From Octopus vulgaris (Eukaryota), in assembly GCA_951406725.2 (NCBI GenBank), contig OX597828.1, forward strand, positions 63,798,001 through 63,862,000: 64,000 bases of DNA, read 5' to 3'. The translations under genes were made by a program, and so were the position numbers. Below the pieces are notes generated by a model, which had not been told where the DNA came from, searched no databases, and saw only the letters and a list, made by a program, of their open reading frames with translations. Shown here one piece after another: positions 4,973 through 59,775 of this stretch. Position 1 is the first letter of the stretch, and each line of letters begins with the position of its first letter.

Positions 4973-5015
4973 AAATGTCTGACGAATGCTAACGTGAAAT
5001 TCTGTGTAACAGTTT
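4973..5015 (+). ncRNA. Hammerhead ribozyme motif (type I, degenerate stem III), same family as 16766-16814
   Basis: aaatgt CTGACGA atg-ctaa-cgt GAAA ttctgtGTA acagttt. Downstream 5030-5095 (tattattctacctttggtattcgagtact) resembles the 16844-16875 tail. Confidence 0.6.
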
Positions 5016-6926
5016 GAGAAGACTTTTTCGGCTTTAATAACTAGCGTATTATTCTACCTTTGGTATTCGAGTACTATTCATCCCACGTTGTTCTGGAATT
5101 TGCATGCTTACGTTGTATGTGTGTGTGTGTGTGTAAATTGTATGTGAATTGAATATAGAAGACAGTTTATATACAAAACTATATAATACTTGTTATTTAC
5201 TGGGCTCTCCCTCCCTTCCTTTTCTGTCACCACCTCTACCCAACCACCTCTCCGCATCTCAGCTACATACTCTACCCCCTAACATATCTATACACACACA
5301 CACAGACATATATATATGTATATATATATATATGTATGTATATATGTATATGTATATATATATATGTATGTATATATGTATATGTATATATATATATATG
5401 TATGTATATATATGTATATATATATATATATATATATGTATGTATATATATATATATATATATATGTATGTATATATATATATATATATATGTATATATA
5501 TATATATATATATATGTATATAAATATGTATGTATATATATTTATATATATATATATGTATGTATATATGTATATGTATCTATATATATGTATGTATATA
5601 TATATATGTATATATATATGTATGTATGTATATATATATATATATGTATGTATGTATATATATGTATATATATATATGTATATATATGTATGTATATATA
5701 TTTATATATATATATATATATATATGTTTGTATGTATGTATGTATATATATATATATAAGTATATATATATATATAGATATATATGAATATATATATATT
5801 CACACGCACGCGCACACAAACACCACCCATTACTAATGGTCTCTACACTGTTAAAAGTGGTGACGGTAGTGGCTGTGTGCGTGGGCGCGCTTATCTTTTG
5901 CATGTTAGAGTCACAGAACATAAGACCCCCACATAATACGAATGTACATTATACTGTGATGACAGACAGGTGTGTCCCTGTTTGTTTTTTTATTTGTTTG
6001 TGTGTGTGTGTGTGTGTGTGTGTGTGTGTGTGTGTGTGTGTGTGTGTGTGTGTGTGTGTGTGTGTGTGTGTGTAGGCATTTGTTTATTGCTTGTGTGCTG
6101 TTTGAAATAGTAACCGTATATTCATGAATCTATCATACTTCACGGTTGCTAAGCAGATGTATGCATATATACATATGATATATGTGTGTGAGTATATATA
6201 TATATATATATATATGTGTGTGTGTGTGTGTGTGTGTGTGTATGTATGTGTGTGTGTGTGTGTGTATGTAGATATATACCGGAAGACTTAAAAGCTTGCA
6301 TACAAATTACAAAATACACAATCGTTGGCGAACTTCCAGTTTTCCGGCAACGTATAAATATGTACAAATATTATATGTATATGTAGGAGTATATAATGTA
6401 TGTACAAGTATAAACATATAACACACACATAAATACACACATACATACACATATATATGGTGTGTGTGTATGTGTGTGTGTGTGTGTGTGTGTGTATGTG
6501 TGTACATATATATACATACGTAGACATACATAAATATTTTAAATATAGTTCTACTTATGCATTTCACATCCTATTGTATGTGATGCAAACATACACTCAC
6601 ACATTCAAACATATATATACACACACACACATTAAAAATGCAGAAAAATCTCCATTTCTAAAATACTAACTCACTCGGCGCTTAAATGTTTGTTTATAAA
6701 AATGTTAAATATTCTGATTGTATACATGCATACATACATACATACATACATGTGTGTGTGTGTATGTATATTATATGCATGTATATGCATATATATATAT
6801 ATATATATATATATATATATATACGTGTGTGTGTATGTATATATATGTATAATATATATGTACATATATCTATAAACCTCTGTGTGTATATATATATCTA
6901 TAAATATATATACACACACACATTCA

Positions 6927-7050
6927 AGGCGCGAACGTGGCTGTATGATAAGAAGTTTCCTTCCCCACCATACAGTTCTGGGTTCAGTCCCACAGCGTGG
7001 CATCTTGGGCAAGTATCTTCTACTGTCGATCAAAACCTTGGGCGGAACCT
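6927..7050 (+). mobile_element. CORE-type SINE head (tRNA-like region plus core)
   Basis: GGGTTCAGTCCCACAGCGTGGCATCTTGGGCAAGT: B-box-like sequence plus core, matching 47205-47240. Confidence 0.7.
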
Positions 7051-7770
7051 GAAACTCCTCATATAGGTTGACTGGTTTTTATTACTTAGCGTTATTTTTT
7101 CCGGCTCTTTACGTTCTGAGTTCAAATGCTGCCGGAGTCACTTTGTCATTCATCTATCCGGGGTCGATAAAACAAAATAAGAACCAGTGAAAGACTGGAG
7201 TCAATGCAATCAACATCCTCCTCTCACGAAAATTGCTTTCGTTCTGTGAAAATTAGAGGAAAAAAAAGTAAAATTCTATTTTTCCATCATCGTCGTCATC
7301 GTTGTTGCTGTTGTTGTTGTTGTTTGTTTGTTTGGTGTTGTTTTCATTGTATATCTTCTTCTCATCTATTTTGGCCAATCTTGTTGATCTTTCTCGACTC
7401 GTGATTAATACCCGGATGTACTTATTAGTGCTCTTCAAGATGATTATTTTTGTATGTGGACACACCCATTGGTCATCTCGGTTACATGTATTATGCGGGT
7501 GTATGTGTATGTGTATATACTTGTATACTTACTTGTGTGCATGTGTCTCTGCGCCTGTCTGTATGTGTATTGATTGATACAAGTTTTAATAAATACAGTT
7601 TATACGTGTATATATAAATAAATGCAAATATGTGCTGATCTATGTATGTTTTGGAATAAACACAAAAACGGTTGCTATGGTTTTTCTCGTAGTTGTTTTT
7701 CAGTGCTATTCTCTATCGCTCAAAACCTTGACACCGTTTTACAACAGTTTTCCCTTTTTTTTTGCTCCAG

Positions 7771-7887
7771 AAAAACGTCCGACAGACCTGAGCACAGGCA
7801 TGAAGTTCCAATGGGTTCTTTACAACATTACTTGCAGTGGAGGGATAATCGTGGCCATTTTATACTGGCTGGTCCTATATCATCCAG
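7771..7887 (+). CDS. Protein rolling stone-like, internal exon
   Basis: Polypyrimidine tract + CTCCAG acceptor and GTAAGC donor, 117 nt, phase 1/1. Encodes EKRPTDLSTGMKFQWVLYNITCSGGIIVAILYWLVLYHPG (W-x-L-Y-N-I...LYW, typical of rolling stone-family proteins) and splices in frame to 10334. Confidence 0.85.
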
Positions 7888-8272
7888 GTAAGCATTCTTG
7901 CTCCTCTATTAAGTTATTCATATATTCTAAGTCTTTTTAATAACTATTATAATTCAAAATCGGTCGAACGATAGGTGGAGGAAATGACTTGCGATACCTT
8001 GAATCTGAGTTCAAACCCAACCCAGTTCGAATTCGTTTTTTATTATTCTGGGGTCGTAAAAGTAAATACCCCTCACATTTTGGGTAAGTGGCATAAATAG
8101 ACTATTCCTCCACCAATTTCTTTTCTTTCTTCTATCTTAAAAATCATTTATTTTCAGTTTGTAGTTTTGAACTGTTTTATTCCTTGGATGAATTTCTTTC
8201 GTCAATTTTTTTGCGCCATGTTTAATAAGGGTTTCTTATTCAGGCATGAGATCAACAATATCTATATAGAAA

Positions 8273-57444: not shown

Positions 57445-58051
57445 GGTATTAACTAAGTAGATCCACTCACATATTTCCATAAAACAGTAAATGCAAACAT
57501 ACATATAATTATATCCAGATAGAGAATGTAATATTTCATAAGGTACATAATTCATATGACACCGTATTTTTCGTAAACATAATATTTTATAACTAAAAAG
57601 TCCGCTAACTTGACCGCTATATATATATGTATATACATACATGTATATATACATATATATATATATATAGAAGTATATATATATGTATAGATATATATAT
57701 AAGTATATATATATATATATATATATGTACATATACAACATATTGAATATATATTCCATATATTTTTGAAATATATTTCATATATATTGCATATATATTT
57801 CACATCCTTCTTCAGCACAGCTTTCCATTGAAAAAGATTTATCATAGATTTATCAAATGCTACGTACCTCAAACCTTCTGACCATGCGACATCAAAATAT
57901 TTGAAGAAAGTGAGCAAAGGCTAAATCTACATAGACGTTTGAATTCATAAATCTTCCCTCCAAAATTCTGCCATGCGCATTACAAAAATAGGTTGTCAAA
58001 GGGAGTGAAAAATCCAAATAGTAATATAATGAAATCTTTTTCAATGGAAAG

Positions 58052-58162
58052 CTGTGCTGAAGAAGGATGTGAAATATATATGCAATATATATGAAATATA
58101 TTTCAAAAATATATGGAATATATATTCAATATGTTTATAATCCAGAAACATGATGTTCACAG
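58052..58162 (+). ncRNA. Hammerhead ribozyme, tandem copy 1
   Basis: ctgtg CTGAAGA a-ggat-[about 70-nt AT-rich]-atcc-a GAAA cat-g-atGTT cacag. Perfect 5-bp stem I, GUU site. Confidence 0.8.
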
Positions 58163-58669
58163 ATAACCGCCAGACTTCGTATTCGTTATCTATTCCTTCT
58201 GTTTTGCATATGTGAATTACAGGGTCTGTCATGCCCGGAGTCCAACTTTGATAGAAATAAGCATTCTTGACTGCTATTTCTATTTTTTCGGTATGCGGTC
58301 AAGCAACCTGTTTTGCCTGTCCCTTTTTCTTATATACAATATATATACTGAACTTTACAGAAGTTCCTGCCGGTAATCGGCTATATTTACATACCGAATT
58401 CTACCAGTAAATAATTGGGGTTTTTTTAAAAGCCTTTATAGAAATTATTTACTCTTATCATTATATTACTATTTGGATTTTTCACTCCCTTTGACAACCT
58501 ATTTTTGTAATGCGCATGGCAGAATTTTGGAGGGAAGATTTATGAATTCAAACGTCTATGTAGATTTAGCCTTTGCTCACTTTCTTCAAATATTTTGATG
58601 TCGCATGGTCAGAAGGTTTGAGGTACGTAGCATTTGATAAATCTATGATAAATCTTTTTCAATGGAAAG

Positions 58670-58780
58670 CTGTGCTGAAGAAGGATGTGAAATATATATG
58701 CAATATATATGAAATATATTTCAAAAATATATGGAATATATATTCAATATGTTTATAATCCAGAAACATGATGTTCACAG
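58670..58780 (+). ncRNA. Hammerhead ribozyme, tandem copy 2
   Basis: Same sequence as 58052-58162, 618 nt downstream. Confidence 0.8.
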
Positions 58781-59195
58781 ATAACCGCCAGACTTCGTAT
58801 TCGTTATCTATTCCTTCTGTTTTGCATATGTGAATTACAGGGTCTGTCATGCCCGGAGTCCAACTTTGATAGAAATAAGCATTCTTGACTGCTATTTCTA
58901 TTTTTTCGGTATGCGGTCAAGCAACCTGTTTTGCCTGTCCCTTTTTCTTATATACAATATATATACTGAACTTTACAGAAGTTCCTGCCGGTAATCGGCT
59001 ATATTTACATACCGAATTCTACCAGTAAATAATTGGGGTTTTTTTAAAAGCCTTTATAGAAATTATTTACTCTTATCATTATATATGTACATATACATAT
59101 ATATATATAGAAGTATATATATGTATAGATATATATAAGTATATATATATATATATATATAAGTATATATATATATATATATACTTATATATATA

Positions 59196-59775
59196 TAAAT
59201 GAAAGAATGGAGTTGAACGACGAATTAACAAAATTCCTTTATTTTATTTTCGACATATGTTTCGAAGGCTGCATATTCCTAATTTCGAAGGAATAAGGGG
59301 TGCATTATACCACCTTCTCATCAGGAAAAGTAAGGAACTTATGTCAGCATCAAGATGCACAAAATTTTTTTAGATGACTGCCCACACGGAGCCCACAGCG
59401 ATAATGAGTGTTTCTTTAAAATATGTGGGCAGTCATCTAAAAATTTTGTACATCTTGATGCTGACATAAGTTCCTTACTTTTCCTGATGAGAAGGCGGCA
59501 TAATGCACCCCTTATTCCTTCGAAATTAGGAATATGCAGCCTTCGAAACATATGTCGAAAATAAAATAAAGGAATTTTGTTAATTCGTCGTTCAACTCCA
59601 TTCTTTCATTTATTTGTATTTAAAAAAACACACAAATTTCCACACGATAGCACGTGATCTCTGCCCTAGGCATGTAGCTTCAACAGTGTTTTTCTGACGT
59701 GAATTTGCTACCCAGGTATCGGTTAACCGAATTATCCATAATAAGATAATTCATTCAACTACTCAATTATACTTT
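59196..59775. mobile_element. Fold-back element (arms of about 190 bp, 37-nt loop, tail of about 160 bp) within (TA)n
   Basis: 59196-59386 is reverse-complemented at 59424-59612. Confidence 0.92.
59479..59561 (+). ncRNA. Hammerhead ribozyme (type I, canonical core), mirror copy at 59247-59329 (-)
   Basis: ttttc CTGATGA gaaggc-[42 nt, branched]-gccttc GAAA catatGTC gaaaa. Perfect stems I and II, palindromic ACATATGT, predicted cleavage after C59556. Confidence 0.92.

Follow-up and report, generated by a model that had tools for sequence, protein, structure and literature searches.

A 64,000-nt stretch of the Octopus vulgaris genome (assembly GCA_951406725.2, contig OX597828.1, positions 63,798,001 to 63,862,000; hereafter the window) raises the question of which elements carry the many motifs resembling hammerhead ribozymes that lie in it beside TA microsatellites. 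A sequence-only reading had taken these motifs for about eight families of non-coding, non-autonomous elements, at roughly one locus per 6 kb, mobilized in trans by the reverse transcriptase (RT) and GIY-YIG endonuclease of Penelope-like elements (PLEs). We found 12 insertion loci that belong to nine families (A, B, C1, C2, D, E, F, G and H), or about one per 5.3 kb, in a window that is, however, denser in such motifs than the average of the genome. The hammerhead motifs are real, diverse and genome-wide, and the TA-flanked insertions that carry them are of two kinds, 3′ ends of coding PLEs and non-coding units of the retrozyme type (B, E and H), both of which were likely written by a PLE RT after a GIY-YIG nick in a TA microsatellite.

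The window has a GC content of 36% and consists of microsatellites over about 25% of its length; the assembly comprises 2.80 Gb in 227 contigs. Repeats within the window were identified by masked self-BLAST, plain repeat finding being dominated by microsatellites, and each window copy was used in a search of its own genome, which yielded 20 to 30 loci per family (L numbers below). Since the loci were taken for their closeness to the window copies, the family majority lines lean towards the letters of those copies. The 542 to 3,665 candidates per family at first look do not equal copy numbers and were not treated as such. An unbiased sample consisted of 60 preset 10-kb stretches (600 kb) from 28 contigs.

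Hammerhead motifs in the window and in the genome

In its first, strict version, the search descriptor was passed by only the two family A copies. The canonical descriptor, which tolerates a single additional base before or after stem II and requires a palindromic stem III, gave five matches in the window (at 58057, 58675, 59484, 59324 and 11941, five of about 19 cores), relative to a mean of 0.025 and a maximum of 1 in 40 local dinucleotide shuffles. A relaxed descriptor, which also allows U4C, A6U or A6C, and GCAA, gave six matches relative to a shuffle mean of 0.275. In the 600 kb of random stretches, it was found that the canonical descriptor matched 17 times at 10 loci (seven of the matches coming from one tandem array) and 0, 0 and 0 times in shuffles, and that the relaxed descriptor matched 32 times, with 2, 2 and 5 matches in shuffles. 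The canonical density of the window was 78 per Mb (5 in 64 kb), about two to three times the 28 per Mb (17 in 600 kb) of the random stretches.

Genome-wide, a canonical-core pattern matched 55,612 times, whereas the reversed pattern used as a control matched 6,535 times; this pattern has a short stem II, counts some sites double and misses the families with long stems. Intact-core layouts summed over three patterns amounted to at least 65,000. When 310 matches from 1.65 Mb of fetched, insertion-biased DNA were compared, they fell into 34 sequence clusters with differing stems and palindromes and one core.

A chance origin of the layouts in AT-rich, microsatellite-rich DNA would agree with the failure of most window copies to satisfy the canonical descriptor and with the Rfam covariance models, which returned no hammerhead family around A and B up to an E value of 10 and, over the whole window, only sub-gathering microRNA matches driven by microsatellites and hairpins among the matches listed (150 of 393). 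The shuffle and reversed-pattern controls, and the 34 clusters from 1.65 Mb that share a core but not their stems, leave this explanation with a negligible probability. The motif frequency was far above that of dinucleotide shuffles, and the majority lines of families A, B, C1, E, G and H keep the core.

The core in question is that of type I hammerheads (C3 U4 G5 A6 N7 G8 A9 / G12 A13 A14 A15.1-U16.1 H17), which was the majority form in these six families and was also present in the long copies of family D. Most of the defects in window copies are private decay. The copies at 4973 and 11641 are decayed, that at 52710 has GAAG, that at 56264 has G5C, that at 50295 has A6U, and that at 50024 has a U3-A8 pair with A13C; there is a stem mismatch in 29954 and in both B copies, and U4C with a 2-bp stem II in 16766. 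In all, each of the 13 coordinates at which hammerheads had been proposed contains either a hammerhead-like layout or the decayed remains of one, although few satisfy the canonical descriptor, and the layouts at 11641, 11910, 29954, 50295, 52710 and 56264 lie on the minus strand. Mirrored copies, as had been claimed, are present in A (59324), B (38857), D (16752), F (48860) and H (57815, without the 3′ half). The stem III palindromes do differ between families, but the earlier list of them lacked ACAT-G-ATGT of family H and ACTC-A-GAGT of family D.

Families that are 3′ ends of coding elements

Families A, C2, D, F and G are 5′-truncated 3′ ends of coding PLEs, and family C1 is probably the 3′ end of a Neptune-type PLE. 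Judged by sequence motifs rather than by a tree, A, D and G appear to belong to the Hydra clade, and C2 and F to the Neptune clade.

The family F locus L252 has a pLTR-ORF-pLTR structure (pseudo long terminal repeats flanking an open reading frame) with a period of 4,465 nt and is 99% identical to L253 over 3.8 kb; family F gave Pfam matches to RVT_1 and GIY-YIG. The copy in the window is a truncated Neptune-type PLE (48690 to 50130, plus strand) with an inverted arm at 48690 to 49140 and a hammerhead at 50029 to 50058 that is mirrored near 48860, and it retains the last codons of the GIY-YIG endonuclease at 49211 to 49352 (plus strand; tblastn E 4e-28 against the F protein of L253). In family C2, an endonuclease was found in sense at 7 of the 25 loci fetched by the upstream part of the family, with an RT in L378. 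The Neptune marks DKG, a CX4CxxC linker and CCHH were seen in both families, F and C2 (L253, L378, L377 and L255). The C2 copy of the window (50198 to 50362, minus strand) has a minimal hammerhead with its core at 50326, and a decayed fragment of the C2 clade lies at 11635 to 11690 (minus strand).

The family G copy is a 1.5-kb Hydra-type PLE 3′ end (56107 to 57620, minus strand) with its core at 56377, in which G5C is particular to this copy. Three of four extended G loci (L226, L227 and L228) have an endonuclease 2.4 kb upstream, and two have an RT; L227 and L228 share 5.3 kb, their RT has RWR, DKT and GLYRDD, and L227 has a CxCX5C linker. The 3′ untranslated region of G, 2.4 kb long (L226, 2730 to 5130), AT-rich and internally repeated, is unusually long for a PLE. 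The family D copy is a short Hydra-type PLE 3′ end with an inverted arm (16677 to 16908, plus strand), and an old relative, about 73% identical, with an intact core and a decayed stem III, lies at 4911 to 5115 (plus strand). A coding link was found at 2 of 30 D loci: L254 has a 232-aa endonuclease frame, similar to the endonucleases of G and L175 and with a mutated linker, and has 1.5 kb in common with L255, as far as the hammerhead. The U4C of the window copy was considered as a fixed feature of D and rejected, as it came from a query-biased majority line and the long coding copies carry U4. Family A (59198 to 59772, plus strand) is a Hydra-type PLE 3′ end with an inverted 5′ arm, TA on both sides, and canonical hammerheads at 59479 to 59562 (plus strand) and at core 59324 (minus strand). 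At 2 of 30 loci (L002 and L021), a GIY-YIG C-terminus lies in sense about 600 nt upstream of the core, its 57 codons 41 to 42% identical to the endonuclease C-terminus of another PLE (E about 7e-8); the C-terminal CxxC/CxH was the only clade mark observed.

Family C1 is represented in the window by a copy at 52615 to 52990 (minus strand), whose minimal hammerhead (core 52741) has GAAA changed to GAAG, and by a copy at 11832 to 12000 (minus strand) with a canonical minimal hammerhead (core 11941). In one C1 locus (L329/L375), a GIY-YIG frame lies some 900 nt upstream, and the sequence that L372 has in common with this locus reaches the last codons of the frame. Two pairs of C1 copies in the same orientation (L343 and L344) were rejected as pLTR-ORF-pLTR elements. 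Position 4 is mixed U4/C4 in this family, with C4 in four of six core-covering matches in the random stretches. Because 5′ ends cluster in C1, C2 and D, a short non-autonomous subfamily may exist within one of them. The PLE frames found were interrupted by stops or frameshifts, no search having been aimed at intact copies.

The claim that the elements are non-coding and non-autonomous fits three of the nine families (B, E and H) and is wrong for A, C2, D, F and G and probably for C1. That all of the families should be non-coding retrozymes moved in trans is consistent with window copies that are short and mostly non-coding, and it is true of B, E and H; with a coding PLE upstream in sense in A, C2, D, F and G, and in the F copy of the window itself, it is very unlikely as an account of the whole.

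Non-coding units of families B, E and H

Families B, E and H are non-coding, circularly permuted retrozyme-type units with lengths of about 353 nt, 537 nt and about 617 nt (604 to 623 nt), respectively. Their longest ATG frames are 31 to 63 aa, tblastn gave no match of the B, E and H units to the PLE proteins, and in all three the hammerhead is preceded by the 3′ part of the unit itself. In the window, family H (57737 to 59079, plus strand) consists of 1.7 head-to-tail copies of a 618-nt unit and an inverted arm at 57737 to 58032, with cores at 58057 and 58675 that have an 81-nt stem II and a GUU site. Family E (29693 to 30279, minus strand) has a 59-nt inverted arm and its core at 30023, and family B (38607 to 39285, plus strand) is a fold-back pair with cores at 38935 (plus strand) and 38857 (minus strand) and a second unit starting at 39213.

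Family H forms dispersed arrays of up to nine full units with about 98 to 99% identity, and two or more cores were present at 20 of 25 H loci and at 2 of 25 E loci. Contigs of H closed on themselves at 618 nt in three of four runs, although it is a guess that these runs are RNA, and a tandem arrangement in DNA or RNA would give the same joint. A 359-nt relative of B is present as a two-armed array in a random stretch (L345). The window also contains a TA-flanked fold-back (47798 to 48069) that is 83% like this B-clade retrozyme and ends before the hammerhead. In L205, a PLE frame just ahead of an H copy was considered as the gene of H and rejected, since the H copy sits in a TA tract behind the frame and is joined through an inverted piece.

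These units could instead be detached pLTRs amplified as DNA in the manner of minisatellites, with no RNA circle. Head-to-tail arrays are formed by B, E and H, and local unit amplification is discussed in a 2026 preprint by Li, Clavereau and Pollet (10.64898/2026.07.22.740005). The arrays, however, are spread across many chromosomes at 98 to 100% identity and end at a fixed position of the unit beside TA, with variable starts and inverted arms, a combination that is in keeping with a circle or multimer having been reverse transcribed. We therefore consider amplification as DNA improbable.

Insertion signature and proposed mechanism

Most of the hammerhead carriers in the window abut (TA)n, as had been noted, but the window is TA-rich in any case, a (TA)5 tract lying within 150 nt of 31% of its bases versus 20% in random stretches. 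The real support comes from the families: (TA)3 was found beside the 3′ end in 192 of 245 loci, compared to 6.9% of random positions. The TA-adjacent fractions were 28/30 in A, 25/30 in C2, 26/30 in D, 22/25 in E, 18/20 in F, 22/25 in G and 22/25 in H. Within a family, the 3′ ends are concentrated at one position or at two, with a spacing of 41 to 47 nt in F and about 45 nt in B; the 5′ ends are variable, often with an inverted arm, and pLTRs and an optional tail are present. An inverted upstream copy was seen at 17/30 loci in A, 21/30 in D, 15/25 in E and 25/25 in H. The connection to PLEs, the TA targeting and the palindromic stem III proposed by the sequence-only reading are supported. A PLE layout with an inverted upstream copy, a tail and a TA bias has been described (PMC8557442), and the tail has been tied to two internal initiation sites (PMC11167929).

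In all families, the 3′ ends lie about 65 to 310 nt downstream of the predicted cleavage site, and the copies read through an intact hammerhead, which suggests that the template was uncut there when it was copied and was thus an uncut, tandem or circular RNA. In B, E and H, a fixed 3′ end combined with 5′ sequence that wraps around the unit fits a circle or multimer copied by a PLE enzyme in trans. In two-molecule folding predictions, the stem III palindromes paired across molecules with a probability of 0.85 to 0.97 in A, B, E, F and H and of 0.6 in D, and a whole double hammerhead was obtained in H and E only; the short windows and the equilibrium folding used give these predictions little weight.

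A mechanism that would account for these observations is one in which the GIY-YIG endonuclease nicks a TA microsatellite and the Penelope RT writes both kinds of insertion. Copying would begin at one or two fixed sites about 65 to 310 nt past the predicted cleavage site, on an RNA that is presumably uncut, tandem or circular. The RT would usually halt early, leaving the hammerhead as the most-copied part, and an inverted second arm would often be added. The RNAs of B, E and H may be cut to unit length by dimeric hammerheads, circularize, and use the PLE enzyme in trans; a model of a PLE enzyme copying a retrozyme circle or multimer in trans has been put forward (PMC7229834 and 10.64898/2026.07.22.740005). 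For the coding lineages, it is likely that cutting is slow or can be dispensed with. The copying of uncut RNA by coding elements matches published experiments in which unprocessed RNA was the main substrate, core mutants left in vitro insertion unaffected, and cutting needed the protein (PMC11167929).

Several observations weigh against this mechanism. The loci examined are best matches to window copies and include the window's own copies and some duplicates, so that the fractions are biased. Adjacency to TA was only 14/30 in B and 15/30 in C1, the latter undercounted because an indel split half of the C1 alignments, and inverted arms were rare in B (6/30), C1 (0/30) and C2 (2/30). Family B copies exceed one unit length, but none of 30 loci had two whole cores. 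Among 14 long loci, a small sample, no PLE partner was found that shares sequence or ends with B, E or H, and the upstream part of C1 fetched 18 other loci in which no clearly linked ORF was found. The predicted dimers form no hammerhead in C1, C2 and G and a partial one in A, B, D and F, cleavage was seen in one of nine retrozyme dimers tested in 10.64898/2026.07.22.740005, and cleavage, RNA ends and circles in the octopus elements are predictions only.

Variant cores in the C2 clade and family F

C2 and F lack the type I hammerhead consensus core, and this applies to the families as a whole. In genome-wide exact matching, the C2 clade had U6 in 15,730 matches and another base in 602, mostly C among the 100 listed, and the reversed control gave 0; such searches fix the other positions and so cannot reveal conservation there. 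In the random 600 kb, U6 was present in 7 of 7 C2-clade matches, which had flanks 73 to 87% identical to the window copy and varied at position 7. A related copy with a different loop has A6. Family F gave 1,839 matches; among the first 100 listed, 95 had U3, A8 and C13, 98 had A13C, and none had A13. Both pLTRs of the full-length F copy carry U3-A8 and A13C. Family F keeps the C3-G8 pair as U3-A8 and has a perfect stem II and a palindrome, and its stem I is only 2 bp beside the core.

Self-cleavage by the C2 and F motifs appears doubtful because their cores depart family-wide from the consensus. Slow or dispensable cutting in the coding lineages would explain how A6U in the C2 clade and U3-A8 with A13C in F became fixed while the families spread. 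In the literature searched, which took in few subscription papers, no natural A6U or A13C was named; a 2017 study by Lunse et al., reportedly on PLE hammerhead variants, may describe such cores. U3-A8, U4C and A6C are published natural variants (PMC4209133, PMC3088659 and PMC7151607).

The variant cores could alternatively be working ribozymes under selection that are slow, dimeric, protein-aided or dependent on another metal ion. The U6 kept in all seven random-stretch matches of the C2 clade, despite the divergence of the flanks and of position 7, speaks for such selection, as do the U3-A8 pair, perfect stem II and palindrome retained by F; natural A6C, too, cuts, if slowly, and prefers Mn2+ (PMC3088659 and PMC7151607). 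However, A6C loses orders of magnitude of activity in Mg2+, F has so short a stem I at the core, and the predicted dimers of C2 do not fold; the motif may instead be kept as a protein-binding or priming signal. On balance, we consider working ribozymes in these two families rather unlikely.

A broader proposal, which we put forward tentatively and which has somewhat less than an even chance of being right, is that this genome amounts to a natural mutational scan of the hammerhead core, with A6U fixed in more than 15,000 copies and U3-A8 plus A13C in a young full-length PLE, representing either new working variants or a role other than cutting, such as enzyme binding, and with B, E and H carrying the PLE insertion signature. 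The role of the hammerhead in PLEs has been called unclear (PMC8557442), and the motif was unnecessary for in vitro insertion (PMC11167929). Closely related, recently active families of this genome differ in carrying canonical or core-changed motifs, and two families, both abundant, have a changed core letter, so that natural variant/revertant pairs would directly test the need for cutting. Coding PLEs and retrozymes, both young and alike in their insertion ends, occur side by side and form a ready system for the proposed PLE-retrozyme partnership; if the proposal is true, the copying of an RNA circle into (TA)n by a PLE enzyme could be shown directly with B, E or H.

Comparison with known elements

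Hammerheads in PLE ends and in retrozymes are of known kinds; the present analysis adds their division into coding ends and retrozymes, the insertion signature common to both, and the two family-wide core changes. Minimal hammerheads have been described in PLE ends, on single truncated copies and as opposite-strand pairs (PMC4209133). The octopus motifs resemble published minimal PLE hammerheads in the short stem I, the extra base after A9, G10.1-C11.1 and the palindromic stem III, in being mostly single motifs of truncated PLEs or opposite-strand pairs, and in U3-A8 covariation; C1 closely resembles a listed Neptune hammerhead motif of Acropora digitifera. They differ in the extra base before G12 in B and H, in stems II of 45 to 94 nt in A, E, G and H, in number (at least 49,000 above control versus 2,000 to 9,000 per genome), and in A6U and A13C, which are absent from the accessible published sets.

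Craig et al. 2021 (PMC8557442) described PLEs of the Hydra clade, one of which, Hydra-1_Obim from Octopus bimaculoides, targets (TA)n and carries a hammerhead whose stem III is palindromic. Families A, D and G are like this clade in RW[KR], DKT, GLYRDD, the CxCX5C linker, the C-terminal CxxC/CxH, the lack of CCHH, (TA)n and a canonical hammerhead, whereas the hammerhead stems of Hydra-1_Obim differ from theirs, and G, at more than 5 kb with its 2.4-kb 3′ untranslated region, exceeds the Hydra PLEs of that paper, which are under 3 kb. The 3′ half and stem I of a D hammerhead (L254, 395 to 480, minus strand) are much like the hammerhead of the record that precedes Hydra-1_Obim in the supplement of PMC8557442; the name of that record is not shown and is, by order, probably coral Hydra-2_Amil. 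Families F and C2 share with Neptune-clade PLEs, as defined in PMC8557442, a GxKF-like motif, DKG, CX4CxxC, CCHH and pLTR-ORF-pLTR, and differ in the family-wide non-consensus core, the clade being assigned by motif only.

Animal non-LTR (non-long terminal repeat) retrozymes reach up to 120,000 copies in axolotl (PMC7229834, Cervera and de la Pena 2020). Families B, E and H are like metazoan retrozymes (PMC7229834; 10.64898/2026.07.22.740005) in being tandem non-coding units with a GC content below 50%, one type I hammerhead per unit and co-occurring PLEs, and unlike them in their PLE-type dimer-dependent hammerheads, inverted arm and TA target, with circles and cleavage being predicted here; E and H are also longer than the 170- to 400-nt circles of invertebrate retrozymes. 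A 2026 repeat annotation of octopus (PMC13282606) lists 31 recently active PLE families, and ribozymes are unmentioned in the accessible main text. On octopus hammerheads, searches that covered few subscription papers gave nothing beyond PMC8557442.

Other features of the window

A possible minimal hammerhead that the sequence-only reading had not listed lies between (TAA)n and (AT)n at 12610 to 12660 (plus strand, motif 12619), and neither it nor a further candidate, motif 37734, had a homologue in the 1.65 Mb. A repeat family at 48150 to 48400 (minus strand, motif 48216) and 12838 to 12990 (plus strand) combines a CUGACGA box with a GC stem and a short palindrome but lacks a GAAA box, and one homologue was found in the random stretches, likewise without GAAA. 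At 4380 to 4500 (motif 4469), CUGAAGA overlaps GAAACGUC on the opposite strand, possibly as a half-core or a permuted form, with no homologue in the fetched loci. A hammerhead family that is missing from the window, with a stem II starting GGCUG, accounts for about one-quarter of the first 100 canonical matches listed from the first 3.4 Mb of the contig numbered C1.

A near full-length non-LTR retrotransposon occupies 31230 to 35370 (plus strand), with 414-aa and 799-aa frames, a Pfam RVT_1 match (E 5e-28) and a 5′ side that adjoins (AAT)n; we take it to be a Dong/R4-like element with a restriction-like endonuclease. A TA-flanked fold-back family with a third partial copy, in which no hammerhead was seen, is present at 50908 to 51418 and has homologues of 85 to 89% identity in L206/L207. 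Fragments of other elements lie at 24833 to 25558 and 60397 to 61284 (minus strand) and at 9062 to 9481, 39383 to 40117 and 63357 to 63887 (plus strand); two of them are related parts of an RT (94% alike), one comes from a DDE transposase, and two are ORF1-like frames with zinc knuckles. A 17-nt minisatellite of 14.7 copies with 95% matches is present at 53877 to 54126. Finally, an exon-like frame at 10303 to 10773 (plus strand) matches Pfam Rost (protein rolling stone; E 5e-11), and some of the insertions may sit in its introns.

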